From positions 1 to 54,677 of the forward strand of contig CAZHUY010000004.1 of the NCBI GenBank assembly GCA_964535465.1: DNA of 54,677 nucleotides. The letters run 5' to 3'. The position numbers and the translations under genes are program-made. Below are positions 2,541 through 25,056 of this stretch, in pieces (position 1 is the stretch's first letter; every line of letters starts with the position of its first letter). Origin of the DNA: an uncultured Myxococcales bacterium (GTDB taxonomy: Bacteria > Myxococcota_A > Polyangia > Fen-1088). The notes beneath the pieces were generated by a model that was not told where the DNA came from, did not search any database, and saw only the letters and a program-made list of their open reading frames with translations.

Positions 2541-3986
2541 TCAGGGCGCGATGCTCGCGATCTTGTTGGCGTCGGCCAGGGTGAACCATAGCTGCCCATC
2601 GGGGCCGGCGACGATGAACATGGGGCCACCTGTCCTGGCGGTGATGGGGAATTCGCTGACTTTGCCTTCGGGGGTGATGCGGCCGATCCTGTTGGCTGCG
2701 TACTCCGTGAACCATATGTTGTGGTCTGGTCCGAGGGCGAGAAACCCGCGCGAGCCCGCGCTGTTGGGCGTGGGAATCGTGAAGTCGTCGAAGACGCCCT
2801 CGGTGGTCATGCGGCCAATCCGGTTCGTGGCGGTTTCGTAGAACCACAGATTCCCGTCGGCGCCGGTGGCGATGCCCGATGGGGCCGCGAACGCGGACGC
2901 CGTCAGCCAGGACGACGTGGGAGTCGGCGCGGACGGCACCAGACGGCCGATCTGTCCGGAGCCATACTGGGTGAACCATATGCTGCCATCGGCGGCCACG
3001 GCGGGACGAGCGGGCTGACTGTAGACCACGCTGACGGGGTATTCGGACAGAGTCCCGTCGACCGACAGCGAGCCAATCCGGTTGCCGTTCATCTCGGTGA
3101 ACCACAGCTTGCTGTCGTGGCCCACCACGATTCCGACGGGGCCGCTGCCCCGGGTCACGGCGTGCTCGGAGACCTGACCCGAGGGCGTCATGCGGGCGAT
3201 CTTGTCGGCGCTGTATTCCGTGAACCACAGATTGTCGTCCGGTCCCCACACGATGCCCTCGATGGTGGTTCCGTTGGGAAGGGCTTGGAACTCGGAGAAG
3301 GTGCCACCGGTGATCGAGTACTTCAGGATCTTTCCGGTGGTGTGTCCAGCGATCCACAGGCTGTCGTCCGGACCAGCGGTCAGACACCACGGCTGGGTGA
3401 ATCCGATGGGGAGCTTGCGCTCCTTGATGACGTTGAGCGGTCCCGTGTCAGCGCGCAGGGTGTCCCTGGGTGCGTCGCCGACCGTCGATCCGCCGTCGGC
3501 GTAGTCCTCTCCAGTCTCCGCGTCCAGACCGCCGTCGAAGGGGGCTTCCTCAGCGTCGCGGGCGTCCGCCGTGGCCGTGTCGAGCTCGGGGCTTTCCGCA
3601 TCCACGGCCGCATCGTCAGCTGCCGTTGTGTTCGCATCCTTTGTGTCGCCGCGCCCATCCACGGTTGTGATGTCAGGGGGCGAGTCTTCGCTCTGGGGCA
3701 GGTCGCGATTCGCATCGAGAGTATGGTTCGCGTCCATGAGCCCCAGGGCATCGGATGCCGGCGGATCCGTGGGCGCACTTGCTTCGGGCTTGCGGCCCAT
3801 ATCCAAGCCGCCGTCGTCCCATGCCGCCGCGCTGCCGTCCTGGTCAGCAGCCGGCGTCGAGGCGGCGTCGCGGGCGGCAGGACCACGCAGCCTGCTCGCA
3901 TCGAACGAGCATCCCACCATCATCAAGAGGATGATCCATGGGCTTGTCAGTCTGGGTATCGATTCTCGGAACTCAGCAGTGATCAT
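2541..3986 (-). CDS. Lipoprotein with Vgb (streptogramin-lyase)-like beta-propeller repeats and an acidic low-complexity linker
   Basis: Lipobox WIILLMMVGC near the N-terminus. A long D/A/T-rich linker follows. Repeated blades carry the G-P-D-x-x-L-W-F-T-E signature (GPDDNLWFTEYSADKI, HDSKLWFTEMNGNRI, DGSIWFTQYGSGQI, GADGNLWFYETATNRI, GPDHNIWFTEYAANRI, GPDGQLWFTLADANKI). Confidence 0.75.
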   Translation of the reverse strand: MITAEFRESIPRLTSPWIILLMMVGCSFDASRLRGPAARDAASTPAADQDGSAAAWDDGGLDMGRKPEASAPTDPPASDALGLMDANHTLDANRDLPQSEDSPPDITTVDGRGDTKDANTTAADDAAVDAESPELDTATADARDAEEAPFDGGLDAETGEDYADGGSTVGDAPRDTLRADTGPLNVIKERKLPIGFTQPWCLTAGPDDSLWIAGHTTGKILKYSITGGTFSEFQALPNGTTIEGIVWGPDDNLWFTEYSADKIARMTPSGQVSEHAVTRGSGPVGIVVGHDSKLWFTEMNGNRIGSLSVDGTLSEYPVSVVYSQPARPAVAADGSIWFTQYGSGQIGRLVPSAPTPTSSWLTASAFAAPSGIATGADGNLWFYETATNRIGRMTTEGVFDDFTIPTPNSAGSRGFLALGPDHNIWFTEYAANRIGRITPEGKVSEFPITARTGGPMFIVAGPDGQLWFTLADANKIASIAP

Positions 3987-4154
3987 ACTGACGACTAATA
4001 GAGATCGTCAGTCTGGACCATCGTCTTGAGCATCGCTGGCCTACGGCGCCCCCCTGGACGACGCGTGAGGCCGTGGTGGCTGTCCGCTTTTGGTGCTTTT
4101 TTTTGGACCAACCCGTGGGTCTTGTGGCTGCTGCTGAGAAACCGAGAGGCATCA

Positions 4155-5468
4155 ATGAAAGCACACCTGGCGATTGGGATTCCTTTGCTGACCATTGCGA
4201 CCGCGTGGGGCTGCGGCGGCTCCGACAACGCACGGGGCTTGGGAGGCGCAAGCGGCACCAGCCTCGCTGGCGGCTCGTCTGCCCAGGGCGGAAGGAATGA
4301 CTCCGGCGGCGCATCAGGCACGGGAGGCCTGTCATCGCTGGGGGGGGGCCTGGGCAGCGCGGGCAGCTCGGCCAAGGGCGGGAGTACGGGCGCGAGCACC
4401 CATTCCAGTGCGGGCGGATCCTCCGCGGTGGTCTCCACCGGCGGTAGCGCGGGTCGAGGCGGTGGCGCGGGCGGTGGCGGCAAGACCGTGACCAGCACCA
4501 GCGCCTCGGGCGGTGCCGGCGGCGCTGCCGGCAGCAAGGGAGGCGACACGGGCGGTGGTGGAGGCAGCCCTCGGGACGACGGTGGAGTGTCCGGCGATGC
4601 CTTGGCGGTCGATGGCGCAAAGGCTGATGCGCCCGAGGCCGGCGGCAGCGCCCAGACATGTCCGACCGGCCTGCCTGCGCCGAGCGCGGGCAACCGCAAG
4701 GGAACCCTCCAGCACGGCGGCAAGTCGCGCACCTACACTCTGCACGTCCCCTCGGGGCTTTCGGCTGGCAAGCCGCTGGCCTTGGTCTTCGATCTGCACG
4801 GGGCCGGCGGCTCGGGCACGGGGCAGCAAAGAGACAGCGGCTGGGGCGCCGTGGCTGACAGGGAGAAGTTCCTGATGGCCTATCCCGACGGAATCGACGG
4901 CTATTGGAACGTGGACGACACGTGCTGCGGTACGGCTGGAAAGCAGAAGATCGACGACGTCGGCTTCCTCAAAGCTCTCATCCTGGCTCTGAGCAAGGAC
5001 ATCTGCATCGACGCCACACGCATCTATGTCACCGGCTTCTCCAACGGCGGGGGACTCACCCACCGCATGGGCTGCGACGCGGCCGATGTCATCGCCGCCA
5101 TCGCGCCCATGGCCACCGACCTGCGCACGCAGCCCTGCAAGCCCGTGCGCCCCATCTCGATGATGGAATTCCGCGGCACCAAGGACTCGCTTGAACCCTA
5201 CGAGGGCGGCCTGGTGGGCCCAGCCGGCGGGCAGTACGTGGCCGTCGGGGCCAAGGCCTCGTTGAAGCTGTGGGCCGACATCAACCAGTGCACGGGCACC
5301 ACCACCCCCATCGATAAGTACTGCGAGAGCTACACCGCCTGCCAGGGCGGCGTGGAATCCGATCTCTGCTCGATGACGGGCGTGGATCACTCGCCCTACC
5401 AACACAACCTGGACTTCAACGCCGCCGAAGTCGCCTGGAAGATGTTCCAGCGGCAAGCCATGCGCTGA
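4155..5468 (+). CDS. Lipoprotein esterase of the PHB-depolymerase / LpqC-like alpha/beta-hydrolase family
   Basis: I chose the internal start MKAHLAIGIPLLTIATAWGC (lipobox) over the upstream ORF start at 4026. A long Gly/Ser-rich linker follows. The catalytic domain shows LVFDLHGAGGSG, AYPDG, DDVGFL and the nucleophile elbow GFSNGG. Confidence 0.75.
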   Translation: MKAHLAIGIPLLTIATAWGCGGSDNARGLGGASGTSLAGGSSAQGGRNDSGGASGTGGLSSLGGGLGSAGSSAKGGSTGASTHSSAGGSSAVVSTGGSAGRGGGAGGGGKTVTSTSASGGAGGAAGSKGGDTGGGGGSPRDDGGVSGDALAVDGAKADAPEAGGSAQTCPTGLPAPSAGNRKGTLQHGGKSRTYTLHVPSGLSAGKPLALVFDLHGAGGSGTGQQRDSGWGAVADREKFLMAYPDGIDGYWNVDDTCCGTAGKQKIDDVGFLKALILALSKDICIDATRIYVTGFSNGGGLTHRMGCDAADVIAAIAPMATDLRTQPCKPVRPISMMEFRGTKDSLEPYEGGLVGPAGGQYVAVGAKASLKLWADINQCTGTTTPIDKYCESYTACQGGVESDLCSMTGVDHSPYQHNLDFNAAEVAWKMFQRQAMR

Positions 5469-6023: not shown

Positions 6024-7223
6024 TCAGCGAGGACCCGCATCCTTCGGCGCGGGAGTCGTCGCCGGCGTCTGGGATAGTCCGAGGTTGGCGGCCGTGGCAG
6101 CGGCCATCACGCCGCGGATTCCCATCGACACCGCCTGTTCGGGCAGGGTGCGAACGAAGGCCAGCGGAACGCGCAGCGAAAGCTCGGCCCGGTCGGCTTC
6201 GCCGGAAGGCGGGGTTGCGCTGCCGCGCAGGTTGAGGGTGGGGCCATCTTGGCGACAATCGAGGGCGAGATCCCAGGCGCCTTGAGGCGTCTGTTCCGCG
6301 CTGGCCAGCCATAGCGGCGCCCCGCGATCGACGCGCAAAATGGGTTGCCCGAGCCGGCCCAAGGCGGTGGTACCGTCGGCGGCGAAAAGTCTCTGGCCCT
6401 CGCTCTCTTTCCAGGCGTCGTCGATGGCGATGACGGTCGACGCATCCAGGATCCGGAAGGTGAGTGCGCGCGACAGGAAGCCACTGACCCGAAAGGTTTT
6501 GGCGCCCCCCGTTCCTTCGCTGCGGATCTGCAGGGTGTCGGCGCCCAGGACGCCCACCAGACAATAGAGATTCCTCTCGTCGGCGATGCCGGCGGCTCGC
6601 ACCACGATCATCTGCGCACCCTCGGTGCGCCTGGCGATCAGGATGCGCGCGTTGGCGAAATCGATCTGGCAGGTCGCCAGGGCCGACAGTTCGGAGCGCG
6701 CGGTGATGCCCTGGACAGCCAGGAGCTGTTCGACCGCCGCGGAGCCCGCCAGGCCGACCACCATGGACGCATCCGCGGGGATGAACGATTCCAGTCCGTG
6801 TTGCGCGCCCGTGGTGGCCACCGGGAGAGGCGCGGGGGCCGCTTCCTTTTTCGACTTTGAGCCCATCAAGCCCGTGAGGTCACGCAGGTTGCTGACGACC
6901 TGCTGGGTCCCCAGATTGCCCAGCGACACGCCCAGCACCACCACGCCCACCGCCAGGAAGCGCAGCGCCAGGCGGCTTCGTCCCGAGAGAGAGGAAGGGG
7001 AGCGATCCTTGCCGCCGGTTCCGCCCAACAGATGCCAGAGCAAAGGCAGGAAGGGGAAGGTGGCCAGGCCCGCTCCGACCGCCAGCCAAGTCGGGCTCTT
7101 CTGGGCGAGCAAGCCGGCATACAAGGTGAGGGCGGCGACGATGGCCAGCAGAGAGCACAACACCAGAAGCCAAATGTCCGAGGTTCGCCTCTTCTCTTGG
7201 GTATTCGTCGTAGCAGGTTCCAT
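6024..7223 (-). CDS. Hypothetical membrane-anchored protein
   Basis: 399-aa ORF with N-terminal hydrophobic helices (IWLLVLCSLLAIVAALTLYAGLL; WLAVGAGLATFPFLPLLWHLL; LALRFLAVGVVVLGVSLG) followed by a soluble domain. I recognise no family. Confidence 0.55.
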   Translation of the reverse strand: MEPATTNTQEKRRTSDIWLLVLCSLLAIVAALTLYAGLLAQKSPTWLAVGAGLATFPFLPLLWHLLGGTGGKDRSPSSLSGRSRLALRFLAVGVVVLGVSLGNLGTQQVVSNLRDLTGLMGSKSKKEAAPAPLPVATTGAQHGLESFIPADASMVVGLAGSAAVEQLLAVQGITARSELSALATCQIDFANARILIARRTEGAQMIVVRAAGIADERNLYCLVGVLGADTLQIRSEGTGGAKTFRVSGFLSRALTFRILDASTVIAIDDAWKESEGQRLFAADGTTALGRLGQPILRVDRGAPLWLASAEQTPQGAWDLALDCRQDGPTLNLRGSATPPSGEADRAELSLRVPLAFVRTLPEQAVSMGIRGVMAAATAANLGLSQTPATTPAPKDAGPR

Positions 7224-7357
7224 CAGGACAGGGAGAATAGCCTGGATCGCGGCGAAGGCACGACTACTGGCCGCCCAATAGCCAGAATGGGTAGGTTGGT
7301 CAGGGGACTGTCGCTAGGTCGCTCGGCGAACCTTCGCCGTGCCGCCTCGAGCGGTCG

Positions 7358-8146
7358 CTAGATCATCCCCGATCCCAACAGCAGGGCAATGAGGAGCAGC
7401 AAGACTCCCGTGATCCGTTGGACCGTGGCCATGGTGATCTTGTGCAGAACCCGTTTCCCCAGAATCACCCCGGAAAAGGCGGCCAGTGCGCCGACCGCGA
7501 TCAGCAGACCGTCGCGGCTGCCTGTCAGGTCGGTGAGACGCGAACCCAGCAAGATGGTCCCGTAGGCCGAGATGCGCACCACATCCACCATGAGCCCGAT
7601 GAGGGCGTTGGTGCCGACGAAGGCTTGCGGCGCGATGCCGGCCTTGGCCAGAAAGGCAGAGCGCAAAGCCCCCTGGTGCCCCGAGAGGCCCCCGAAGAAT
7701 CCCGACAGGAGTCCGCCGAGCGGCAGATAGCGGCGATCGATCTCCAGCTTTTCGAAGCGCGGGTGGAGCTCGATCACGGCGAACCCGCTCATGAGGATGG
7801 CCATGGCCAGCTTGAGCGGCGTGACGATCGCAAGTTTGCCGAAGAGCGAGTACGACCAGAGCTCGGGCATCGCCGCGAGGAGCTTGAGGGTGTATGCCCC
7901 GGCGAAGGCCGCGACGACGGCCGGCACCCCGAAGCGCAGCACCAGCCGCGGCTCCGCCAACTTACCGAGCAGCACCGCCTTCAGCAGGTTGTTGGCGCCG
8001 TGGACCAGCGCCGTGGCCGCGACCGCGAGCTCGACCGGGAGAAAGAAGGCGAACACCGGCAAGAGCAACGTGCCCAGCCCAAAACCCGAAAACATGGTCA
8101 GGCCAGAGGCCAGCAGAGCGACAAAGGCTACGACGATGTATTCCAT
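7358..8146 (-). CDS. TauE/SafE-family (DUF81) anion exporter membrane protein
   Basis: 262-aa polytopic protein. The N-terminus VALLASGLTMFSGFGLGTLLLPVF and the internal GLLSGFFGGLSGHQGALRSAFL match the duplicated TauE signature. Confidence 0.8.
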   Translation of the reverse strand: MEYIVVAFVALLASGLTMFSGFGLGTLLLPVFAFFLPVELAVAATALVHGANNLLKAVLLGKLAEPRLVLRFGVPAVVAAFAGAYTLKLLAAMPELWSYSLFGKLAIVTPLKLAMAILMSGFAVIELHPRFEKLEIDRRYLPLGGLLSGFFGGLSGHQGALRSAFLAKAGIAPQAFVGTNALIGLMVDVVRISAYGTILLGSRLTDLTGSRDGLLIAVGALAAFSGVILGKRVLHKITMATVQRITGVLLLLIALLLGSGMI

Positions 8147-8379
8147 GACTTGCAGCGCTCAGAGGTATGGATGTGCGCTCAAGCAAAGGTGATTCGAGGA
8201 ATTTCGGGCGTGCGGCGTCTGCTTGACCGCGTCCCTGCCGGCGACCTCGCGTGCGTTTGCGACTTTCCGCGGCCAGTCGGCCCTTTGTGAACAAGCCAAG
8301 TGGCAGTTGACGGAAGCCGATCGGTTTTGTTCTACTGCTTCCCTAAAGACATCCGATCAAACGCGGGTGTGGCGACGAC

Positions 8380-10572
8380 GTGAAGATTGCATTTACTCAC
8401 AACCTTCGCTTAACAGACAGCGAAGACGAAGCTGAATTCGACACAGCGGAAACTGTCGATGCCATAGCAGACGGCTTACGAGCCGGCGGCCACGAGGTCG
8501 AGAAGATCGAGGTCACGGGACCAGCTTCTCACCTGGCGGCACGTCTGGAATCCTACGGGCCGGACCTGATCTTCAACACGGCCGAGGGACGGCGCGGGCG
8601 CACGCGCGAGGCCTTCTACCCGGCCTTGTTCGAGGAGTTGGGCTTCCCGTACACCGGCTCGGACGCGTACGTGCTGACGGTCACCCTCGACAAGTGGATG
8701 ACCAAGCTGGTGCTGGGAGCGCAGGGCATTGATACGCCGCGCTCGCGTCTGGTGGTTCAGGACGATGTGCAGCGCGCGCGCGACATCGGCCTGTGGGGGT
8801 TGGCCTTCCCGGTTCTGGTCAAACCCAACTTCGAAGGGTCGTCCAAGGGCATCGGCGACGAGGCCGTGGCCCGCGACGCACGTGCCCTGCTGGACATGTT
8901 GCCCAAGGCCCTGCGCCGCTATCCGGCCGGCGTGTTGGTCGAGGAGTTCGTCCCTGGCGATGACGTCACCGTCCCGTTCCTGGAGGGCGCGGGAGAGGAT
9001 GGCGTGCTGATGCCCGTGGACTACGTCATCGATCCGGCGGCCCGCAGCCGCTTCAACATCTATGACTATCGTTTGAAATCAGCCGAGGCCAACCGGGTGG
9101 CCGTGCGATGCCCGCCCGACCTGCAGCGCGACGTGGTGGCTCGGCTGCGTTCGGTAACCAAGCTGGCTGTCCGCACCCTGGGCGTGCACGACCTGGGGCG
9201 CGTCGATTTTCGCCTGGGTGACGACGGTCGCATCTATCTGCTCGAGGTCAACGCGCTCCCGTCGTTGGAGCGTGGTTCCAGCACCTTCGCCGCGGCCGCG
9301 CGCGAGGGCCTGGACTACCGGGCGGCCCTGGGCGCCATCGTGGCCAGCGCGGCTCGGCGTCAAGGACTCAGCGCGCCGCAGGTGGGGGGGAAGAAGCGCC
9401 GCAGCCCCGATGCCTTGCGCATCGGCTTCACCCACAACATGAAGCGCGTCGACTCCAAGCGTGGGGACGACGCCGAGGCCGAGTACGATGCGCCCGAGAC
9501 CATCGAGGCCATCCGCAGCGCCCTGGAGAGCTACGGACATGTGGTGCTGCCTATCGAAGCCACGGCCGAGTTGCCGCGCCAGTTGATGGATTCGCCGGTG
9601 GATCTGGTCTTCAACATCGCGGAGGGCGTGGAGGGCCGCAACCGCGAGGCCGCTGTCCCGGCCCTGTGCGAGCTGATGGGCATTCCTTACACCGGCTCAG
9701 ACGCGGCCACGCTCTCCATCGCGCTCGACAAGGCGCTGTCCAAGAAGGTGCTGCGCCAGCACGGCATCCTCACGCCGGAGTTTCAGGTCATGGAGACCGG
9801 GCGCGAGCGCCTGTCGCCCAAGATGGTCTTCCCCCTGATCGTCAAACCCAACCAAGAGGGTTCGTCCAAGGGTGTGAGCGCTCATGCCTCGGTGGTCGAC
9901 GACGAAGAATCCTTGCGCTTGGTGGTGCGCGAGCTGCTGGACAAGTACCGGCAGCCGGCGCTCATCGAACACTACATCGCCGGTCGGGAATTCACCGTGG
10001 GCCTGCTGGGCGACAAACGCCCGCGCGTCCTGCCGCCCATGGAGATCATGTTCCTGGACAAGGACAACCCGCGGCCGGTGTACGACTACCAGATCAAGCA
10101 AGAGTGGGAGAAGCACGTGTACTACCAGTGCCCCGCTCAACTGACGCCGTCGGAGATCAAGGCCATCGAGAAGGTGGCACGCGAGACCTTCGTGGCGCTC
10201 GACTGCCGGGATGTGGCGCGTGTGGACCTGCGCATGGATGCAGGCGGGCAGTTCTACGTGCTCGAGGTCAACCCCCTGCCGGGCTTGACCCCCGAGTACT
10301 CCGACCTGTGTCTCATCGCCAAGGCGGCCAACATCGACTATCGCTCGCTCATCGGCGAGATCCTGGCGGGCGGACTCAAGCGCCTGCGCGAAAAGCGTCG
10401 GGCCGGTGCGCGCGAGGCGGAAGCGGCCCGCGGCGAGGGCAACGGCAAGTCCGAGAGCAGGGCCGAGAACGGCAATGGCAAGCACGAGGGCAACGGCAAG
10501 GGCGAAGCCAATGGCAAGGCCGAGCGTGCGTCCGCCGAGAAGACCCCGTCCGCGGTGCCCGAGACCCCCTGA
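8380..10572 (+). CDS. Tandem-duplicated D-Ala-D-Ala-ligase-like ATP-grasp enzyme (two complete ligase modules in one polypeptide) with an Asn-Gly-Lys repeat tail
   Basis: GTG start. The two halves align motif by motif: KIAFTHN/RIGFTHN, DLIFNTAEGRRGRTREA/DLVFNIAEGVEGRNREA, GFPYTGSD/GIPYTGSD, FPVLVKPNFEGSSKGI/FPLIVKPNQEGSSKGV, RVDFRLGDDGRIYLLEVNALPSL/RVDLRMDAGGQFYVLEVNPLPGL. The C-terminal tail is GEGNGKSESRAENGNGKHEGNGKGEANGK. Confidence 0.85.
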   Translation: MKIAFTHNLRLTDSEDEAEFDTAETVDAIADGLRAGGHEVEKIEVTGPASHLAARLESYGPDLIFNTAEGRRGRTREAFYPALFEELGFPYTGSDAYVLTVTLDKWMTKLVLGAQGIDTPRSRLVVQDDVQRARDIGLWGLAFPVLVKPNFEGSSKGIGDEAVARDARALLDMLPKALRRYPAGVLVEEFVPGDDVTVPFLEGAGEDGVLMPVDYVIDPAARSRFNIYDYRLKSAEANRVAVRCPPDLQRDVVARLRSVTKLAVRTLGVHDLGRVDFRLGDDGRIYLLEVNALPSLERGSSTFAAAAREGLDYRAALGAIVASAARRQGLSAPQVGGKKRRSPDALRIGFTHNMKRVDSKRGDDAEAEYDAPETIEAIRSALESYGHVVLPIEATAELPRQLMDSPVDLVFNIAEGVEGRNREAAVPALCELMGIPYTGSDAATLSIALDKALSKKVLRQHGILTPEFQVMETGRERLSPKMVFPLIVKPNQEGSSKGVSAHASVVDDEESLRLVVRELLDKYRQPALIEHYIAGREFTVGLLGDKRPRVLPPMEIMFLDKDNPRPVYDYQIKQEWEKHVYYQCPAQLTPSEIKAIEKVARETFVALDCRDVARVDLRMDAGGQFYVLEVNPLPGLTPEYSDLCLIAKAANIDYRSLIGEILAGGLKRLREKRRAGAREAEAARGEGNGKSESRAENGNGKHEGNGKGEANGKAERASAEKTPSAVPETP

Positions 10573-10581
10573 GTTTTTCCT

Positions 10582-10655
10582 CACAGAGAACACAGAGTCC
10601 AAACAAGAAGAATTCGACACCCCCTCGTCTCCCCTCCGTCTCTGCGTCCTCTGTG
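10582..10655 (+). repeat. Inverted CACAGAG heptad pairs in the comparatively AT-rich spacer between the tandem ATP-grasp gene and the DmpA gene
   Basis: CACAGAGAACACAGAG (10582-10597) matches the reverse complement of CTCTGCGTCCTCTGTG (10640-10655) at 14 of 16 positions. The arms are separated by a loop of about 42 nt. Confidence 0.55.
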
Positions 10656-10684
10656 TCCTTTGTGGTTAACTCCCTCTGGCAATC

Positions 10685-11821
10685 ATGAGACAGCGGCTAC
10701 GCGATCTGGGTTTCTCCATCGGGCAAATTCCCCCCGGCCCCCTCAACGCCATCACCGATGTACCAGGGGTCAGGGTAGGGCACACCACCCTGATCGAGGG
10801 TGAAGGGCCGCTGGTGGTGGGCAAGGGGCCGGTGCGCACCGGCGTGACCGCCATTCTGCCGCCCGACCCGATCTTCGCCGAGCGTGTCCTGGCCGGATCC
10901 TTCGTGCTCAATGGGGCGGGCGAGGTCTCGGGGTTGACTCAGGTGGTGGAGTGGGGACTGCTCGAAACCCCCATCCTGCTCACCAGCACCATGTCGGTGG
11001 GCAAGGTTTCCGACGCGACCGTCAAGTGGATGACCCGCCGTTTTCCCGGCATCGGCACCGAATACGACGTGATCATCCCCATCGTCGCGGAGTGCGACGA
11101 CTCGTGGTTGAACGACGCCGTGGGTCGGCACGTTCGCTCCGAGCACGTCTACCGCGCCATCGAGCAGGCCGCGAGCGGCCCCGTGGGCGAGGGCTGCGTG
11201 GGCGCGGGTACCGGGATGGTCACCTGCGACTTCAAGGCGGGCATCGGCACCAGCTCGCGCCGGGTCACGATCCACGGGTTGCACGGCGACGCCGCGCCCC
11301 TGACCTACAACCTGGGCGTGTTGGTGCAGAGCAACTTCGGGGTCATGCCCTCTCTGTGCATCGCCGGTGCGCCCGTCGGTCAGATGCTGGAGCCGCGCTT
11401 CGTCGAGGCTGCCAAGCGGACCTTCAACGCCGGCTCGATCATTTGTGTGGTGGCCACCGACGCGCCCTTGTTGTCATCGCAGATCGACCGGCTGTGCAAG
11501 CGCGCCGCCCTGGGCATTGGCCGCGTGGGATCGTTCGCCGCCCACGCCTCCGGCGAGATCATCATCGGCTTCTCCACCGCCAACAAAGTGCCGCGCGTGA
11601 CCTCGGGCATGACCCACCGGATCGAGGTGCTGCTCGACGACGTGTGCGATGGGCTTTACCAGGCGGTGATGGAATGCACCGAGGAGGCCATCGTCAACGC
11701 CTTGTGCATGGCCGAGGACATGACCGGCGCGTCCGGGCACTTCGCCCCAGCCTTGCCGCTCGGTCGGCTGTCCGAGATCCTGTCGCGCCATCGAGACGCC
11801 CAAAAGATCGATCCGCCGTGA
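10685..11821 (+). CDS. DmpA/BapA-type aminopeptidase (peptidase family P1/S58, Ntn-hydrolase)
   Basis: The N-terminus GPLNAITDVPGVRVGHTTL...VRTGVTAILP is typical of the family. Also present: GAGTGMVTCDFKAGIGTSS and a glycine-rich core. Confidence 0.85.
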   Translation: MRQRLRDLGFSIGQIPPGPLNAITDVPGVRVGHTTLIEGEGPLVVGKGPVRTGVTAILPPDPIFAERVLAGSFVLNGAGEVSGLTQVVEWGLLETPILLTSTMSVGKVSDATVKWMTRRFPGIGTEYDVIIPIVAECDDSWLNDAVGRHVRSEHVYRAIEQAASGPVGEGCVGAGTGMVTCDFKAGIGTSSRRVTIHGLHGDAAPLTYNLGVLVQSNFGVMPSLCIAGAPVGQMLEPRFVEAAKRTFNAGSIICVVATDAPLLSSQIDRLCKRAALGIGRVGSFAAHASGEIIIGFSTANKVPRVTSGMTHRIEVLLDDVCDGLYQAVMECTEEAIVNALCMAEDMTGASGHFAPALPLGRLSEILSRHRDAQKIDPP

Positions 11822-11838
11822 CATAGTGTTCGTCAGGC

Positions 11839-12888
11839 ATGCGCATCGCTTTTCTGGTCCCTGAGGCCAAAGTCCAGCAGCCCAGCTTCGGGGGGATCCA
11901 TCTGGCCTGGGCCGCCCAACGCCGAGGTCACGAGGTGTGCTTCGTGTCTTCGCACGATCTGTCGTTTCTCGACGACAACACCGTCCTGGCCAGCACCGTG
12001 CGGGTGCGCGCCGGCGAGTACCGCCGGCCGGCGGACTTCCATGCCGCCCTGGTCTCCGGCGAGGCGGTGCGCGAGGAGGACGCGTTGAGTTCTTTCGACG
12101 TGATCTTCTTGCGCTACAACCCTCTGCGCGAGCCGCCCGGCCAGCCGGCCTCGCCCGTCATCGACTTTTGCTGGCGCCTGCGGGTGGGCGGTGCCTTGGT
12201 GGTCAACGATCCCGAGGGCGTGCGTCGCGCCTGGGGGCGCCTGTACCTGGCCGATCTGCCGGCCGAGGTGCGCGCGCGCACCATGGTTTCGCGATCGCCC
12301 GAGGCCATCAAAGCCTTCCTGCGCGAACTGGACAAGCCGGCGGTGCTCAAGCCCCTGGCCCATGCCGGGGGAGAGAAGGTCTTCTTCCTGCCGCGACGCC
12401 AGTCGAAGAATCTCAATTCCATCATCAGCGCCATCACGCGAGAGGGCTACGCGGTGGCGCAAGAGTACCTGCCCGAGGCCAAGGGCGGCGAGAAGCGTAT
12501 CCTGCTCCTGGGCGGCGCCCCCATTCGCGTCGGGGAGCAGGTGGCCATCTACCGGCGTCGGCCCTCGCCGCAGGTGGGACACGCGGCGCCGTCTCGCGGA
12601 AAGGCCCTCTCACGCGCGGGGCGTTGTCACTTCGGCGCCAGCGAACAGAAGGTTTGCGACCTGCTTCGCCCCAAGCTGTTGGCCGACGGCCTCTACTTCG
12701 TCAGCGTGGATGTGGTGGGGGACAAGATACTGGAGTTGAACGTGTTTTCGCCTGGGGGCATTCACTCGCTGCGCGAGATCTATCGCATCGATGTCGCCAC
12801 CGTGATCATCCGCGATCTCGAGCGACGCGCCCGCCTGCGCGCCGCCTATCGCGGCACGGCAGATCCCGAAGCTGCGGATATCGCCTAG
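11839..12888 (+). CDS. Glutathione-synthetase-like (GshB/RimK-type) ATP-grasp ligase
   Basis: Collinear with bacterial GshB: AAQRRGHEV, DVIFLRYNP, VLKPLAHAGGEKVFF, AQEYLPEAKGGEKRILLLGGAP, YFVSVDVVGDKILELNVFSPGG. The substrate loop region is divergent. Confidence 0.8.
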   Translation: MRIAFLVPEAKVQQPSFGGIHLAWAAQRRGHEVCFVSSHDLSFLDDNTVLASTVRVRAGEYRRPADFHAALVSGEAVREEDALSSFDVIFLRYNPLREPPGQPASPVIDFCWRLRVGGALVVNDPEGVRRAWGRLYLADLPAEVRARTMVSRSPEAIKAFLRELDKPAVLKPLAHAGGEKVFFLPRRQSKNLNSIISAITREGYAVAQEYLPEAKGGEKRILLLGGAPIRVGEQVAIYRRRPSPQVGHAAPSRGKALSRAGRCHFGASEQKVCDLLRPKLLADGLYFVSVDVVGDKILELNVFSPGGIHSLREIYRIDVATVIIRDLERRARLRAAYRGTADPEAADIA

Positions 12889-12910
12889 CAGGTTTCTGAC
12901 ACCCTCTTAG

Positions 12911-14203
12911 TTGGTGAGTTGCCCGGGATCTTGTACGCTGAGGTCCACGAGGTTAGGCGTGGAACTGCGCAACAGTCCCATCAGCAGCGAAACCGAGGCT
13001 CTGCCCGAGGGGGACACGTCTCTGCGCGAGGCGGCCCCTCAACTTGAGGTCGAGGAAGAGCCCTCCATCCCCAATCCGCCCACCGCGCCCGGCCCGATCT
13101 TCACCCTCTCGCCCGAGGAGATCACCCGCTTTTTCCAGCGCGCGCGAAGGGATCAGGACACCGAGCGCTGGGACGTGCGTTTGGACGCGGCCCTGCGCGA
13201 GATCCTTGAACGCGCCAACGATTTCGTTCCCTCGGAGTCGGGCGGCATCTTGCTTGACGATCCGCGCGCCAAGCTGGCGGGGGTTCGCACGCCCCGGCTG
13301 ACCTTCATCGCCACCTACGGTCCGGGGACGTCGCATCTGTTGGGCAAGCGCATCCCCAGCGATCGGGGCTTCGTGGGGCAGATCTACCGTTCGGGGGTGG
13401 CCTGCCGGACCGACCAGCTCTCCGACGAGGATCCCTTGACCATCGCCATGCCCGCGCGACCCGAGGGACGGCCGGTGGTCTCGGTCATCGGCATGCCGGT
13501 GGTGGTCGGCGAGTCCATCTGCGGCGTCCTGCAGCTCGTGAACCGGCGTTCGGGCGGTCCCTACAGCGCCCGCGACAGCGAGCTGTTGCGCATCTTCGCC
13601 GCCTACATGTCGTCCTCGATCCAGAACGCGCTGGATGCCATTCACGCCCGCGCCTTGGCGCGGCTGGATCACCTGACCGGACTGTTCAACAGTCGCTATT
13701 TTCACATTCGGCTGGAGGACGAGATCGCCCACGCCGATCACAACGCCACGGATCTGTCACTGCTCTTCATCGATCTCGACCACTTCAAGGCCGTCAATGA
13801 TCGCTTCGGCCACCTGGCGGGTAGCTGGACCCTGCGCGAGGTGGCCCGTTTGCTTTCGGAGAACGCGCCGCCCGCGGCGGTGCTGGCTCGCTACGGCGGG
13901 GACGAGTTCGTGGCCATCCTGCCGGGCAGCGACATCCATCGCGCGACCCAGACCGCCGAGGAGCTTCGTCGTGTCATCGCGGACGCGACCATGTTCGACA
14001 GCGAGACCGAGGGCGAACACAACGCTCAGCCTTTGCCGGGGGTGCGCGCTTCGATCGGGGTAGCCTCCTATCGCGAGCATCTGGCGCCGGGAGGCAACCA
14101 GCGGCGCCGCGAGAACTTGCTGTTACGACTGGCCGACGCCGCTATGTACCGGGCCAAGGCCAACGGCCGCGACCGGGTCGAGGTCGCCGACGCCGAAGAG
14201 TAG
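12911..14203 (+). CDS. GAF-domain diguanylate cyclase (GGDEF)
   Basis: GAF-like region (GGILLDD...GFVGQIYRSG...VIGMPVVVGESICGVLQLVN). GGDEF domain motifs: LDHLTGLFNSRYF, LLFIDLDHFKAVNDRFGH and RYGGDEFVAILPG. The start codon is uncertain (TTG at 12911 or GTG at 12914). Confidence 0.85.
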   Translation: MVSCPGSCTLRSTRLGVELRNSPISSETEALPEGDTSLREAAPQLEVEEEPSIPNPPTAPGPIFTLSPEEITRFFQRARRDQDTERWDVRLDAALREILERANDFVPSESGGILLDDPRAKLAGVRTPRLTFIATYGPGTSHLLGKRIPSDRGFVGQIYRSGVACRTDQLSDEDPLTIAMPARPEGRPVVSVIGMPVVVGESICGVLQLVNRRSGGPYSARDSELLRIFAAYMSSSIQNALDAIHARALARLDHLTGLFNSRYFHIRLEDEIAHADHNATDLSLLFIDLDHFKAVNDRFGHLAGSWTLREVARLLSENAPPAAVLARYGGDEFVAILPGSDIHRATQTAEELRRVIADATMFDSETEGEHNAQPLPGVRASIGVASYREHLAPGGNQRRRENLLLRLADAAMYRAKANGRDRVEVADAEE

Positions 14204-14217
14204 GGGCTCCCCCCTAC
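14200..14217. terminator. Short GC-rich palindrome spanning both stop codons of the convergent GGDEF and flgM-like genes (possible bidirectional terminator hairpin)
   Basis: GTAGGGG-CTCC-CCCCTAC forms a 7-bp stem with a 4-nt loop. There is no U-tract, so terminator function is uncertain. Confidence 0.3.
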
Positions 14218-14414
14218 TGTCGCTTCAAGGCCCGGACCAGGATCCTGAGGGCCAGCCTTTGCGGCTCAACCTGATACTGCCCTGCCGCTACCATCTGCCG
14301 GAGTTCTTCGACCCGTGCCGTGCGGTCGACATCGCCTTGAGAAGCAGAAGCAATGAGATTCGCGGTGCGAGGGCCGCGTCGAGTACCGATTGTGAGTGCC
14401 ATACCCACACACAT
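14214..14414 (-). CDS. flgM: FlgM-like anti-sigma-28 factor (short)
   Basis: The C-terminal segment ARVEELRQMVAAGQYQVEPQRLALRIL follows the FlgM sigma-binding pattern (compare Salmonella [27 protein letters not shown]). It lies directly downstream of a FliA-type sigma gene. An AGGGAG Shine-Dalgarno-like sequence precedes the ATG. Confidence 0.65.
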   Translation of the reverse strand: MCVGMALTIGTRRGPRTANLIASASQGDVDRTARVEELRQMVAAGQYQVEPQRLALRILVRALKRQ

Positions 14415-14482
14415 CGGTCACTCCCTGGGGATCTTAAGGAGTTTTTTTTCTGCTCCTATTTTTATCGTTTGAATTCAAGGGT

Positions 14483-15247
14483 TTAGGCTGCCGCCGTTTC
14501 TTCTAGATCGCCAAGGGTTTCGCGCAGTCGGCGTGTGGCTTCGCCATGAATCTGGCAAACGCGAGACTCGGTCACACCGAGCACATGGCCGATCTCCTTC
14601 AGGTTCAGGTTTTCGCAGTAGTACAGCGACAGAACCTGCTGCATCTTCTCCGGCAGATCATCGATCCCCGCCACCAAGCGCGCCAGGGTCTCACGATGAG
14701 CCGTCACTTCGAACGGATCGGGCTGGCTGTCGTCACGCGTGCGCTCGAGGAAGTCCGGGCCGGCATCGTCGATGCCCACGACGGACGAGCCGCTCAGTTT
14801 CTGTTGGCGCGAATACAGCTCCTGCACGTTGAGACCCAGAGTCTCGGCCAACTCCGCGTTGTCCGGGGTGCGGCCAAGCTGCGATTCCAGCTTGCGGGTC
14901 GCCTCGCGCAGTTCATTGGACAGCCGACGCATGTCGCGCGAGAGCGTGTCGCGCGAACGCAGATCGTCCAGCATGGCACCGCGGATGCGGAACTCTGCGA
15001 AGGCCTCGAAGCGATCGACGCGCTTGGGATCGAAGCGCTCCGCCGCCTCCATCAGACCGATGACCCCCGACGAGATCAGATCGTCGATCTCCACATGGGC
15101 GGGCAGGCGACGAGCGAGTCGACGCGCCACCTTCTCGATGTAGGGAAAAAACTTAGCTGCGTATTCGCGACGTCGAGCTGCCAGCATCTTGGCAGACGGT
15201 TTCCGCGCCTTGCTACCCTTGCTCTTCTTGCTCCTGGCCTTTCGCAT
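14483..15247 (-). CDS. FliA/WhiG-family (group 3, sigma-28-type) RNA polymerase sigma factor
   Basis: Region 2 (DLISSGVIGLMEAAERFDP...FEAFAEFRIRGAMLD), region 3 (LGRTPDNAELAETLGL) and region 4 (LSLYYCENLNLKEIGHVLGVTESRVCQIH). I chose the ATG at 15247 (MRKARSKK) over the GTG at 15277. Confidence 0.85.
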   Translation of the reverse strand: MRKARSKKSKGSKARKPSAKMLAARRREYAAKFFPYIEKVARRLARRLPAHVEIDDLISSGVIGLMEAAERFDPKRVDRFEAFAEFRIRGAMLDDLRSRDTLSRDMRRLSNELREATRKLESQLGRTPDNAELAETLGLNVQELYSRQQKLSGSSVVGIDDAGPDFLERTRDDSQPDPFEVTAHRETLARLVAGIDDLPEKMQQVLSLYYCENLNLKEIGHVLGVTESRVCQIHGEATRRLRETLGDLEETAAA

Positions 15248-15441
15248 GTGCGTCCCCCAATGCAGGTCACGTGCCACCGGGGACAGATCGCTAAGCCTTT
15301 GAGATCACATGCCCAGCGAACGCGCGTGGTCATGTGATCGTCATGGGGATGACGATTTGACGGCGGTCGCACCGTCAACGGGGTGACAGTGGACCGTCAG
15401 CCAGCCCGACGGTCACTCCGGCGCGCGTTCGCGGAGCACGC

Positions 15442-16737
15442 TCAGCCAGTCCGCCGGCGGAGTTTTTCCACCAGCGTGGTCCTGTTCATGCCGAGCAATT
15501 CGGCCGCGCGATTCTTGTTGCCCCCGGTTCGTTGCAGGGCTTGCTCGATCAGCCGATCCTCGAGTTGGGTGAGCAGCAGGCGCAGATCGACGCCGTCTTG
15601 AGGCAGATCCACCAGCGTGGGGCCGAGCCTCACCACGTCGGTGCGTAGCCCAGGGGGGAGATCATTGACGGTGACCTCCCGGTCCTTGACCGTGGCGACC
15701 AGTCGGTCGACTGTCTCCGCGACCTGGCGTACGTTTCCTGGCCACGAAGATGCCCCGAGCTTGACCAGGACCTCGGGAGAGAACGGCGGAACACTGCGAT
15801 TCCGCCGGGCGTTGGCGGCCCGGCGAAAGTGATCGATCAGGGTCGGAATGTCCTCGGGGCGTTCGCGTAGGGGCGGGATGGAGAGGGGGAGGACGTTCAG
15901 ACGGTGGAAGCGCTCGGTGAGGAACTCGCCCTCCCGAACCACCTGCTCCATGTTCTGGGTGGTGGCCACGACGATTCGCAGGTCCTTGCCGGACGCTCCG
16001 CCCAGATCCTTGGGATTCTTCAGGATTCCGAGCAATCCGATCTGCGCCTCGGTCGTCAGGGTGGCCACGTCATCGATGAACAGCGTGCCTCCCAACGAGG
16101 ACATGACCTCATCAGGCGCCTCGTTGGCACCGAAGAAGTCGTTGTCGCTCTCTTGGCTCGACTCGCGTCGGACCGCCACGAAGGGTCCGGCGCGACGGCT
16201 GCTGCACGAGTGGATCAGGCGGGCGACGATCTCTTGCCCGGTGCCCTCCTCGCCGCGTATGAAGACGCTGGCTCCGGAATCGGCGGCCTGTTCAATGCGA
16301 TCCAGGACCACCCGAATGGCGGGATGGTCGCCCATCAGGCATGCCCCGCTGGTTTCGCTGCCAACGCCGCCGCTGACACTCTCGTGTATGACCCGGCGGA
16401 TGATGGCAACCGCCAGATCGGGGTGAAACGGTCGCGGCAGGAAATCGGCTGCGCCGGCGCGAAAGGCCGTCACCACCTCGCCCGTGGTGCGTTGACCGGC
16501 CAAGGCAATCACCGGAGTCCACGGCTGGCAGGCTTGCGCCGTCTGGATGATCTGCTCGCCGCCCTCGGGGAGATTCATGTCGACGACGCACAGGTCGAAC
16601 GATTCGGAGCGGAGCTGCTCGCGCGCTACCTCAGCCGTGGCTGCCATCACGCAACCTCGTTCGAGCCGCGCGGCCACTTGCTGAAGCGCCGTCTGTCCGA
16701 CGGCATCGGCGTCCACAAAAAGGAAACGGTTTGGCAT
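15442..16737 (-). CDS. NtrC-family response regulator (REC - AAA+ sigma-54-activator-like domain - Fis-type HTH) with a degenerate ATPase/sigma-54 contact region
   Basis: REC domain (FLFVDAD...FDLCVVDMNLP). AAA+ core (VFIRGEEGTGQEIVARLIHSCSSRR, GGTLFIDDV, LRIVVATTQ, RLNVLPLSIPPLRERPEDI, WPGNVRQ). C-terminal HTH (GGNKNRAAELLGMNRTTLVEKL). No GAFTGA motif is visible. Confidence 0.85.
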   Translation of the reverse strand: MPNRFLFVDADAVGQTALQQVAARLERGCVMAATAEVAREQLRSESFDLCVVDMNLPEGGEQIIQTAQACQPWTPVIALAGQRTTGEVVTAFRAGAADFLPRPFHPDLAVAIIRRVIHESVSGGVGSETSGACLMGDHPAIRVVLDRIEQAADSGASVFIRGEEGTGQEIVARLIHSCSSRRAGPFVAVRRESSQESDNDFFGANEAPDEVMSSLGGTLFIDDVATLTTEAQIGLLGILKNPKDLGGASGKDLRIVVATTQNMEQVVREGEFLTERFHRLNVLPLSIPPLRERPEDIPTLIDHFRRAANARRNRSVPPFSPEVLVKLGASSWPGNVRQVAETVDRLVATVKDREVTVNDLPPGLRTDVVRLGPTLVDLPQDGVDLRLLLTQLEDRLIEQALQRTGGNKNRAAELLGMNRTTLVEKLRRRTG

Positions 16738-16968
16738 TGCCTTCCGCAGGGTATCGGCGGGAGGAAATTGCTGCTAAAGAGCCCTGGCGCCGAGACCGGC
16801 ATGCACGAAAACACGATCTCGGCAGAGAAAGCAATATTGTTGGAGGGACCGCGATTTATGTGGCGCGCTGTGAGGGTGCGCGAATCCCCGCAGGCGACTT
16901 GACGAAGGGCTGATGACGACGGAGATTTGCCCAAACGCGAGACCGAGAATCAGACCCGGAAGTCCTTC

Positions 16969-18872
<1,904 letters not shown>

Positions 18873-18876
<4 letters not shown>

Positions 18877-19433
18877 ACCCAGCCGCACACACCACAACCC
18901 TGGCCGAGATCGTCGCCTTTGCTGTCCTGAGCGCCGGCGTCCTGGGCGGGGCCATGTTGACCATCACCCGGCGCAATCCCGTGAGCGCGGTCATGAGCCT
19001 GGTGTTCACCTTTGCCGCTCTGGCCGGCGTGTTTGCCACGCTGGCCGCGCACTTCCTGGCCATCCTGCAGGTGCTGGTCTACGCCGGCGCCATCATGGTG
19101 CTGTTCATCTTCGTGGTCATGATGGTGAACCGCAAGGAGACCACGCCCATCACCCGTTATGGCATCGTCACCCGCGCCCTGGGAGTGCTGGCGGGCGGCT
19201 ATGTCTTCTATCGGGTGGCCTGGTTGGTGGGGCACGAGCGCGCCGTCCCTCTGCTGGCGGCCAACACGGTCCCGCCGGTGGTGAACTTCGGTACCGTGGG
19301 CTCGGTGGGGGCGCTGCTCTTCTCCGATTTTCTGTTTCCCTTCGAGGCCATCTCGTTGTTGTTGCTGGTGGCCGTGGTGGGGGGCGTGACCCTGACCCGA
19401 CGCTTGCCCCGCGCGGGCGGCCGGACTTCCTGA
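18873..19433 (+). CDS. nuoJ: NADH-quinone oxidoreductase subunit J
   Basis: The start ATG overlaps the nuoEF stop (ATGA). Sequence: AVLSAGVLGGAMLTITRRNPVSAVMSLVFTFAALAGVF...LQVLVYAGAIMVLFIFVVMM...FEAISLLLLVAVVGG. Confidence 0.88.
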
Positions 19434-19732
19434 TGCCAACCTACGCCTACATCCTGCTCTCCCTGGCGCTGTTCTTCGTGGGTAGCGCCGGCGTGCTCTT
19501 GCGGCGCAACGTGCTCATCGTGCTCATGAGCGTGGAGATGCAACTGGCGGCCGGCACCCTGGCCCTGTTGGCCTTCTCGCGCGCCCTGGGCGATCAGAAG
19601 GGTCACGTGTTCGCCTTCTTCGTCATGGCCTTGGCCGCGGCCGAGGCGGCCATCGGGTTGGGCATCGTGGTGAGCATCTTCCGCACGCGGCAGACCGCGA
19701 ACCTGGACGAAGTCAACGAGTTGAAGGGCTGA
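19433..19732 (+). CDS. nuoK: NADH-quinone oxidoreductase subunit K
   Basis: 99 aa. Sequence: LSLALFFVGSAGVLLRRNVLIVLMSVEMQLAAGTLALLAF...FFVMALAAAEAAIGLGIV. The start shares one nt with the nuoJ stop (TGATG). Confidence 0.9.
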   Translation: MPTYAYILLSLALFFVGSAGVLLRRNVLIVLMSVEMQLAAGTLALLAFSRALGDQKGHVFAFFVMALAAAEAAIGLGIVVSIFRTRQTANLDEVNELKG

Positions 19733-19735
19733 CCC

Positions 19736-21943: not shown

Positions 21944-21946
21944 GCC

Positions 21947-23572: not shown

Positions 23573-25056
23573 TGAAGATTGACGTCTCGGAGTTTGCCGC
23601 TCTCCTTCCGTTTCTTCTGCTCTCCGCTGTGGGGTGCGCGACCCTGCTGGTCGACGTCTTGGCCAAGAGCCGCACGCTGGCCTTGCGGGTGGCGCAGTTG
23701 GGGTGCCTGGCCGCCTTGGCCGCAGTCATCGGGCAGTGGGAAGGCGCTGGCAGCAGCAGCACGGTCTTCTCCGGCATGTGGGTCGCGGATCGCATGGCGT
23801 TGTTCTTGGATGCAATCTTTCTCATCACCGGGCTGGTCACCTTGATGGTGGCCGCTCCCTTCATGCGCGAACACGACTTCGAGCACGGCGAGCACCACGC
23901 CCTGGTCCTGTTCGCCGTGGCCGGCATGATGATGGTGGGCCACGCCGGCCACCTGCTCTCGTTGCTCATCGGCGTCGAGACCATGTCGATGGCCGCCTAT
24001 TTGTTGGTGGCCAGTTGGCGGCGGCAAGCGCAGGGGGCAGAGGGCGCGCTCAAGTATCTGCTGCTGGGCGCGTTCGCCACGGGCTTCCTGGTCTATGGCA
24101 CCGCTCTGGTCTACGGCACCACGGGTGGGGCCATGGGCTACGCAGCCGTCAGCGCCGCCGCGGCTCGGGCCGCCGGCAACCCCTTGTTCGTCATCGGCAT
24201 GTATTTCCTGCTGGTCGGGCTGCTGTTCAAGATCGCGGCCGTTCCCTTTCACATGTGGACCCCCGACGCCTACCAGGGGGCGCCAACCCCGGTGACCGGG
24301 ATGATGGCGGCCGGTGTAAAGGCCGCGTCCATCGCCGGTCTGTTGCGCTTGCTGAGCGTGGCTTTTGCCGATTCCGGCCTGACCCTGGGCCATGCGGGCT
24401 GGGTGCGCATCTTGGGCTTGGTGGCCGTGGTGACCATGACCTGGGGCAACCTGGCGGCGCTTCGCCAGGACAACGTCAAGCGCATGCTGGCCTATTCGTC
24501 GATCGCCCACGCCGGCTATCTGCTGGTGGGCCTGGCGGCCTTGGGCCTACGCCTGGATGGCGCGCAGGCGGCCCTCTTGGTGTATCTGGCGGCCTACGCG
24601 CTCACCTCGCTGGGACTGTTCGCGGTGGTGGCGTGGGTCGGCCGGCGCGACGACGAGCGCTCCCTGGTGGACGACTGGTCCGGCCTGGCCCGCACCCGAC
24701 CTGCCACGGCCCTGGCCATGGCGCTGCTGCTGCTCTCGCTGGCCGGGATCCCGCCCACTGGTGGCTTCTTCGGCAAGTTCTATGTGTTCCGCGCGGCCAT
24801 GCAGAGTCCCGAGCTGGTCTGGCTGGTGGTGGCCGCCGTGATCAACAGCGTGATCAGCGTCTACTACTACCTGCGCCTGGTGGTCGTCATGTACTTCCGC
24901 GATCCGGCGCGGCCGTGGAATCTCTATCCGTCGGCAGGCACGGGCTTGGCCCTGGCCGCCACGGTGCTGCTGGTCCTCGCGCTGGGCGTGGTGCCGGGCC
25001 CGGTGGTCGAGCTGGCGGCGGGCGGACTGGATCCCCGCGCTTTCTCGCTCTGGTGA
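23572..25056 (+). CDS. nuoN: NADH-quinone oxidoreductase subunit N
   Basis: I chose the start MKIDVSEFAALLPFLLL, overlapping the nuoM stop (TGATG), over the upstream ORF start at 23353. Motifs: GVETMSMAAYLLV, KIAAVPFHMWTPDAYQGAPTPVTGMMAAGVKAA, AYSSIAHAGYLL. Confidence 0.88.
   Translation: MKIDVSEFAALLPFLLLSAVGCATLLVDVLAKSRTLALRVAQLGCLAALAAVIGQWEGAGSSSTVFSGMWVADRMALFLDAIFLITGLVTLMVAAPFMREHDFEHGEHHALVLFAVAGMMMVGHAGHLLSLLIGVETMSMAAYLLVASWRRQAQGAEGALKYLLLGAFATGFLVYGTALVYGTTGGAMGYAAVSAAAARAAGNPLFVIGMYFLLVGLLFKIAAVPFHMWTPDAYQGAPTPVTGMMAAGVKAASIAGLLRLLSVAFADSGLTLGHAGWVRILGLVAVVTMTWGNLAALRQDNVKRMLAYSSIAHAGYLLVGLAALGLRLDGAQAALLVYLAAYALTSLGLFAVVAWVGRRDDERSLVDDWSGLARTRPATALAMALLLLSLAGIPPTGGFFGKFYVFRAAMQSPELVWLVVAAVINSVISVYYYLRLVVVMYFRDPARPWNLYPSAGTGLALAATVLLVLALGVVPGPVVELAAGGLDPRAFSLW

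Follow-up and report, generated by a model that had tools for sequence, protein, structure and literature searches.

Small peptides built by a ligase and opened by a dedicated hydrolase are familiar in two forms: glutathione (GshA and GshB, with GGT) and the product of glutathionylspermidine synthetase/amidase. In both, the ligase-built peptide has an unusual N-terminal linkage, and this is cut by a dedicated N-terminal-nucleophile (Ntn) hydrolase or amidase. Cyanophycin offers a related arrangement, in which the genes for the synthetase and the hydrolase (cphA and cphB) are typically adjacent. The S58/P1 peptidases, which include the nylon-oligomer hydrolase NylC, show a preference, in those activities that have been characterized, for N-terminal residues that are D-, beta- or otherwise unusual; to our knowledge, the physiological role of the DmpA/BapA family is unclear despite its use in biocatalysis. 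The locus considered here brings a ligase and an S58 peptidase together. It lies in a 54,677-nucleotide (nt) stretch of DNA from an uncultured Myxococcales bacterium (the whole stretch is called the window below), whose proteins have their nearest relatives in metagenome-assembled genomes of Polyangia (Myxococcota). In it, a gene for a tandem Ddl-like ATP-grasp ligase is followed directly by a gene for a DmpA/BapA-type aminopeptidase, and it is this pair, rather than the longer gene row around it, that recurs across phyla.

A ligase-aminopeptidase pair conserved across phyla

Four open reading frames (ORFs) lie in a row on the forward (+) strand. ORF1 (8380-10572), with a GTG start, encodes the tandem Ddl-like ligase, 'Ddl2', of 730 amino acids (aa); ORF2 (10685-11821, 378 aa) encodes an S58/P1 (DmpA/BapA-type) self-processing N-terminal aminopeptidase; ORF3 (11839-12888, 349 aa) a GshB-like ATP-grasp ligase; and ORF4 (12911-14203, 430 aa) a GAF-GGDEF diguanylate cyclase. 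The last two are specific to one lineage. The intervening gaps are 112, 17 and 22 nt; these positions and spacings agree exactly with a first-pass annotation made from the letters of the sequence. GC content at third codon positions is 0.83-0.88 in all four ORFs, a composition of the coding type, in a window of 66% GC. Profile hidden Markov models (Pfam and NCBIfam) bear out the families assigned in that annotation, save that ORF3, which had been called GshB/RimK-like, is GshB-like and not RimK-like.

The gene order was followed through 80 loci from one scan of species-representative genomes; the window proteins were mapped onto the loci, and all ORFs in the loci were clustered. Denominators in what follows are the loci with enough downstream sequence for the comparison at hand. 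By identity of ORF1 to the window protein, the loci form four clades: A, at least 75% (Polyangia); B, about 68-70%; C, 60-67% (Kofleriaceae and others, in the Myxococcota); and D, 50-54% (genomes labelled Bdellovibrionota, Aminicenantes and others). The S58 gene lies directly 3' of the tandem ligase gene in 52 of 68 loci: it is the next gene in all 32 loci of clade A, in 10 of 11 of clade B and in all 10 of clade D, and in none of the 15 of clade C. The other two genes are distributed differently. A GshB-like gene is present within 8 kb downstream in 23 of 26 clade-A loci, but in only 1 of 10 in clade B, 0 of 13 in clade C and 0 of 8 in clade D (1/31 outside clade A); of the 24 clade-A loci, 19 have a co-directional downstream GGDEF gene, and no locus elsewhere does (0/9, 0/12 and 0/7 in clades B, C and D; 0/28 together). 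The core conserved across phyla is the two-gene module of ligase and S58 peptidase. The first-pass annotation had proposed a cassette of four; the pairing of ligase and peptidase within it is non-random and kept across phyla, at short distances or with potential start/stop overlaps, whereas the cassette as a whole is not a conserved unit, ORF3 and ORF4 being essentially restricted to clade A.

Over the loci, the identities of the ligase and of the S58 protein to their window counterparts co-vary (Spearman 0.95, n=56). At clade-D loci the two genes, taken as their longest ORFs, touch or run into each other, with some uncertainty as to the start codons. The pair is found again in an Elusimicrobia contig (L084) and in a contig of the Anaeromyxobacteraceae (L086). 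A minimal form occurs in a metagenomic contig (L088:6001-8186): a single ligase module (351 aa), of the type of the second module of ORF1, has a stop codon that overlaps the S58 start by 4 nt. The retention of the pair in genomes labelled Myxococcota, Bdellovibrionota, Aminicenantes, Elusimicrobia and others likely marks an unknown small-peptide metabolite.

In the distant loci, the pair has no constant third partner. Neighbours change from locus to locus, and include an aldo-keto reductase, an M24 peptidase with PGA_cap, a trehalose phosphatase and inositol-1-phosphate synthase. Downstream of the minimal pair in L088 are an OmpA-like gene and an amino-acid permease. At four clade-B loci (L030, L036, L038 and L042), a gene for PF15887 Peptidase_Mx, a putative zinc metallopeptidase with an HExxH motif, lies just downstream of the S58 gene and convergent with it; this may be a second peptidase partner. 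At L085:10221-12484, a GNAT acetyltransferase and an Amidohydro_3 amidohydrolase stand in the place of the S58 gene, and may represent an alternative hydrolase partner. One apparent ligase-S58 fusion protein (P0443, in L082) was discarded, because its contig, from a long-read metagenome assembly, has fragmented and frameshifted genes.

The ATP-grasp ligases

ORF1 is composed of module 1 (aa ~1-330, nt 8380-9369), module 2 (aa ~346-672, nt 9415-10395) and a GNGK-rich, low-complexity C-terminal tail (aa ~680-730, nt 10417-10569), which is predicted to be disordered and is not conserved among homologues. Pfam PF07478 (Dala_Dala_lig_C) matches two stretches of the protein (8e-64). The modules share 37% identity, and each is ~30% identical to E. 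coli DdlB. An AlphaFold2 model built from a diverse alignment has a predicted local distance difference test (pLDDT) score of 89, falling below 50 in the tail; a shallow alignment gave a score of 53 and an unusable model. Each module is modelled as a complete three-domain Ddl fold, and the best PDB matches returned by Foldseek are all Ddl/VanA-type ligases (target TM-score up to 0.90).

The catalytic machinery is kept. Alignment to DdlB shows that both modules retain the equivalents of K144, S150/151, K215, R255, D257, E270 and N272; these ATP, Mg and acyl-phosphate residues do not change, even across the most divergent relatives checked, 25 in number (16 from clade C, 9 from clade D). As each module has the full ATP/Mg catalytic set, each should form an acyl-phosphate and then an amide. 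The substrate end is another matter. The D-Ala1 site of Ddl is recognized by the Glu15-Ser150-Tyr216 triad together with His63, and neither module has this combination. His63 is replaced by Glu in both window modules and in most relatives checked, and by Lys in module 2 of two of the nine clade-D proteins; at the position of Tyr216, module 1 has Ser and module 2 has Gln, and the relatives vary; the N-terminal GGxSxEREVS of Ddl is exchanged for a conserved FTHN...AE(F/Y)D; and the position of Leu282 is an invariant Asp in module 2. Scored singly, module 1 reaches 141.7 bits and module 2 reaches 192.8 bits against an NCBIfam Ddl cut-off of 243; each module falls below every Ddl cut-off in that collection, and far below those of the equivalog models. 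By these marks neither module looks like a genuine Ddl, and both depart from Ddl at the D-Ala sites.

An exhaustive search of 1.84 billion representatives placed 1,427 clusters at E <= 1e-30. Tandem homologues extend down to ~35% identity, and many single-module relatives match specifically module 1 or module 2. Since single-module relatives of each type exist, the two modules are old and distinct paralogues and not the result of a recent duplication.

The third ligase, ORF3, matches both glutathione synthetase domains of Pfam (PF02955 GSH-S_ATP, 6e-34; PF02951 GSH-S_N, 2e-8) and shares ~30% identity with E. coli GshB (1GSA). It retains the Mg/ATP residues and the equivalents of GshB Arg210 and Arg225; the RGNLAAGG lid-loop motif of GshB is absent. 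Scores fall below the cut-offs of the NCBIfam glutathione synthase models (PRK05246, 164 against 272 bits; TIGR01380, 158 against 299; the subfamily model PRK12458, 270 against 408), and the RimK-family match is 21.5 bits against a cut-off of 143. NCBI names the homologues 'hypothetical protein'. The gene is found solely in clade A and at locus L032. Within clade A its presence is not uniform: L001 is without the GshB-like gene, L005 and L021 are without both accessory genes, and L008, L062 and L073 carry kilobase inserts.

The S58 aminopeptidase

ORF2 matches Peptidase_S58 (PF03576) with 374 bits against a cut-off of 23.9 (8e-112), over profile positions 1-305 of 307. Its best PDB matches are PH0078 of P. 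horikoshii (2DRH, 2e-89), BapA (3N2W, 7e-73) and DmpA (1B65, 2e-67); as the alignments to these three begin at residue 3-5, no signal peptide is apparent. The family is recognized by a Ser nucleophile in a Gly/Asn-Ser pair, followed by an ATDAPL motif, and ORF2 has both. Gly250-Ser251 (nt 11432-11437) is predicted to be where the protein cleaves itself and to supply the nucleophile; it aligns with the sites of BapA and PH0078. This site and the motif V(G/A)ECDDSxLND, which includes Glu136, show no variation among the 47 ligase-linked S58 proteins collected. Glu136 is presumably the residue that anchors the free N-terminal amine in BapA; with it kept, the S58 enzyme should take off an N-terminal residue.

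What the pair may do

What is demonstrated comprises the folds, conservation of the catalytic residues, a divergence from genuine Ddl and GshB, and a gene pairing that is conserved. The account of function that we favour, with a probability of roughly 45%, is that the two genes encode a module of the cytoplasm in which a small peptide is made and loses its N-terminal residue, while a third ligase extends the peptide in the window's lineage. That is, each ligase module would activate a carboxylate as an acyl-phosphate and couple it to an amine; the presence of two distinct sites suggests two different amide bonds, hence a short oligopeptide, perhaps of three residues. The S58 protein, a cytoplasmic Ntn-hydrolase, would process itself at Gly250-Ser251 and then remove the N-terminal residue of the ligase product. 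Between them the two enzymes would synthesize and turn over, in a make-and-trim cycle, a small cytoplasmic peptide resistant to proteases. In the Polyangia, the GshB-like ligase would probably add one residue at the C-terminal carboxylate, following the chemistry of GshB; a multi-receiver protein encoded upstream and the GAF-GGDEF cyclase encoded downstream may regulate the operon. Three things here are inferred: what the product is, whether the S58 step serves turnover or maturation, and any link to c-di-GMP (cyclic di-GMP).

A fuller version would make the module the centre of an undescribed cross-phylum pathway. The product would then be a previously unknown small cytoplasmic peptide, for example of three or four residues, whose N-terminal residue is D-, beta- or iso-linked, serving in the manner of glutathione, of an osmolyte or of a signal; the Polyangia would have gained the third ligase along with receiver and c-di-GMP control. 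This is put forward tentatively, as a possibility we would sooner bet against.

Several points weigh against a make-and-trim cycle. Without regulation, it would seem futile to make a product that the neighbouring enzyme then hydrolyses; alternatively, the S58 enzyme may have a biosynthetic role or another target. The 15 clade-C Myxococcota loci with a tandem ligase have no S58 gene within 10 kb; L085 and L087 likewise have a tandem ligase without an adjacent S58 gene, and at L087 no hydrolase of any kind is near it; single-module relatives stand alone in L081 and L089. The loci with a tandem ligase and no S58 gene indicate that the ligase can work without an adjacent S58 partner. Moreover, the predicted TM-score of the ORF1 model (pTM) is 0.54, so that the placement of the two modules relative to each other is uncertain.

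A second perspective keeps the pathway and reverses the part played by the peptidase. Here the S58 protein is a biosynthetic partner, an aminoacyl/peptidyl transferase or a maturation amidase, which turns the ligase product into the final metabolite. There are precedents in the same fold: ArgJ carries out acyl transfer, and ThnT a biosynthetic amide cleavage. We nevertheless consider this alternative unlikely, though it survives best. The ORF2 protein is far nearer to the hydrolases PH0078, BapA and DmpA (2e-89 to 2e-67) than to ThnT (6e-5), and the invariance of Glu136, presumably the amine anchor, in all 47 linked proteins fits an exopeptidase. What keeps it in view is that a tight, possibly translationally coupled pairing suits a pathway as well as a cycle, that ThnT does appear among the weak PDB matches, and that enzymes of the DmpA/BapA type serve peptide synthesis by aminolysis (PMC9235088).

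One might also suppose that the product is a polymer. In such a scheme a polyamide reserve of repeating units would be assembled at the two ligase sites, much as cyanophycin synthetase uses two sites, and depolymerized by the S58 enzyme. Two distinct, conserved active sites in one polypeptide are what this would lead one to expect, and the usual adjacency of cphA and cphB and the membership of NylC in S58/P1 lend it some colour. The details are less accommodating: neither Pfam nor NCBIfam detects a Mur-ligase-type domain or the N-terminal cyanophycin synthetase domain; every fold neighbour is a Ddl enzyme that works on small molecules; the aminopeptidases that the S58 protein resembles are exo-acting; and the single module that accompanies S58 in L088 implies that two sites are not required. 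We regard a polymer cycle as quite unlikely.

It is improbable that these are housekeeping genes thrown together by chance, with ORF1 the Ddl of peptidoglycan synthesis, ORF3 a glutathione synthetase and ORF2 a general aminopeptidase. Public annotation reads this way (D-alanine--D-alanine ligase, glutathione synthase), and full-length ORF1 does exceed the NCBIfam 'subfamily' Ddl cut-off (329.5 against 243 bits). It does so because the scores of two modules are summed; each alone fails, and the residues of the D-Ala sites differ. ORF3 in turn fails every GshB cut-off, and carries the name 'hypothetical' at NCBI. ORF1 is outside a cell-wall gene context, with no mur or fts genes near it, and an adjacency of ligase and S58 that spans phyla, with possible start/stop overlaps, is not coincidental.

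Least probable of all is the suggestion of the first-pass annotation that a peptide tail is added to a protein and trimmed from it in the manner of RimABK, with the GAF-GGDEF cyclase supplying the c-di-GMP that tunes the system. The shared direction and close spacing of ligases, peptidase and cyclase in clade A speak for it, as does a cyclase that looks active and has a GAF sensor domain. Against it, none of the 28 loci outside clade A has the cyclase gene, and some clade-A loci have it inverted or displaced; Pfam and NCBIfam detect none of the RimK, RimB and RimA families; the fold neighbours of the ligase all act on small molecules; and the pair comes without any conserved target gene or small ORF.

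The public labels, D-alanine--D-alanine ligase and glutathione synthase, are probably wrong for a family of more than 1,000 representative clusters. The pair would also give the DmpA/BapA aminopeptidases their first natural substrate context, and as a compact two-gene target it is directly testable in vitro.

Signalling genes and other neighbours

ORF4 matches PF00990 (123 bits, 1e-35), GAF_2 (3e-13) and TIGR00254 (144 bits against a cut-off of 37). Its YGGDEF motif is intact; the sequence upstream of this reads APPAAVLAR, with no RxxD I-site. As the I-site is optional, its lack leaves ORF4 within the GGDEF diguanylate cyclases, and to judge from these motifs the enzyme looks catalytically active. 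In L015, the GGDEF gene is inverted and lies ~7.5 kb upstream. The tuning by c-di-GMP proposed in the first reading had adjacency in a single lineage as its sole footing, and was its weakest part.

That reading overlooked a gene for a multi-receiver-domain protein (721-2517, +, 598 aa; two matches to Pfam Response_reg), whose membership in the system is uncertain. It lies directly upstream of the ligase gene in ~30 clade-A loci (cluster 6 in the synteny maps), and in L013, L014, L022 and L023 its stop codon is 15-21 nt before the ligase start. In the window, the two genes are separated by a 5.9-kb block that looks like an insertion into the conserved gene order. The block holds a virginiamycin-B-lyase-like beta-propeller (2541-3986, -), a Gly/Ser-rich ORF with no Pfam match (4026-5468), a membrane ORF (6024-7223, -) and a TauE exporter (7358-8146, -). 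Downstream of the module, clades B and C have a histidine kinase and an NtrC-type regulator. The Myxococcota module thus sits persistently among signalling genes; Myxococcota genomes are rich in such genes, however, so adjacency alone is weak evidence of regulation.

Signals for transcription are sparse. A promoter-like block 5' of the ligase gene (8307-8336, +; TTGACG, an 18-nt spacer and TCTACT) is a weak candidate; it lies ~45-70 nt 5' of the GTG start and is kept in the four closest loci (L001, L002, L058 and L060), but a consensus promoter scan called no promoter, this block included. The terminator-like sites found are at chance level and located within genes, and none is convincing. A sigma-54 promoter 5' of the ligase was looked for because NtrC-type activators are nearby: a 9-of-11 match was obtained in 3 of 67 loci against a background of 1.5%, and none convinces. 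An Rfam search of 7000-15500 returned nothing credible, and the four proteins had no hits among the PADLOC defence models.

Beyond ORF4, a sigma-28-type sigma factor (14483-15277, -), 83-92% conserved in relatives, adjoins an NtrC-type activator (15442-16737, -). The latter has a weak Sigma54_activat match (87 bits) and seemingly lacks the GAFTGA loop, the sigma-54 contact; it reads ...DNDFFGANEAPDE... From 16927 to 25056 (+) runs an NADH dehydrogenase (nuo-like) series, judged from translations only: it opens with an apparent fused NuoE/NuoF-like protein (649 aa), followed by membrane subunits, and no obvious nuoG, nuoH or nuoI was spotted in the translations.

Comparison with known systems

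The Ddl/VanA-type ligases share with ORF1 the fold of each module and all of the ATP/Mg and acyl-phosphate residues. They differ in what surrounds this chemistry: here two paralogous modules are fused, the D-Ala sites are changed, module scores lie below the cut-offs and the partner is an S58 peptidase. DmpA, BapA and PH0078 (MEROPS P1, formerly S58) match ORF2 over its full length and share its Gly-Ser site, PH0078 (2DRH) being the closest structure. What sets ORF2 apart is its position as an obligate-looking downstream partner of an ATP-grasp ligase. No description of a Ddl-like ligase paired with an S58 peptidase was found in the literature; the amidoligase survey of Iyer et al. (2009; PMC3268129), the likeliest place, may contain a mention.

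With the RimABK system of Pseudomonas, the locus has in common an ATP-grasp ligase, a protease and a c-di-GMP enzyme side by side. The logic that suggested the comparison in the first-pass annotation is indeed alike; the families are not, since RimK, the retropepsin-like RimB and the EAL phosphodiesterase RimA are matched here by Ddl/GshB-like ligases, an S58 peptidase and a GGDEF cyclase. RimK matches in Pfam and NCBIfam are marginal (ORF1, 29.6 bits without a significant stretch), there is no EAL domain, and no link to ribosomal protein S6 was found.

CphA/CphB resembles the window's arrangement in having two ligase sites in one polypeptide and a hydrolase gene next to it. In the window, the Mur-ligase-type domain is missing and an S58 enzyme takes the place of S51; in addition, the minimal form in L088 has a single ligase module.

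The glutathione and glutathionylspermidine systems share, from what is established of those pathways, the logic of ligase and hydrolase, and ORF3 has the GshB fold and catalytic residues. They differ in that the locus has no homologue of GshA, GGT or the CHAP amidase, and in that ORF3 scores below the GshB equivalogs and has lost the lid loop. As its families differ from those of the glutathionylspermidine, GshA/GshB-GGT, CphA-CphB and RimK-RimB pairs, the module can be filed under none of them. An ATP-grasp ligase with a dedicated hydrolase is a kind of system already known; what seems new is this conserved and probably mis-annotated pair.

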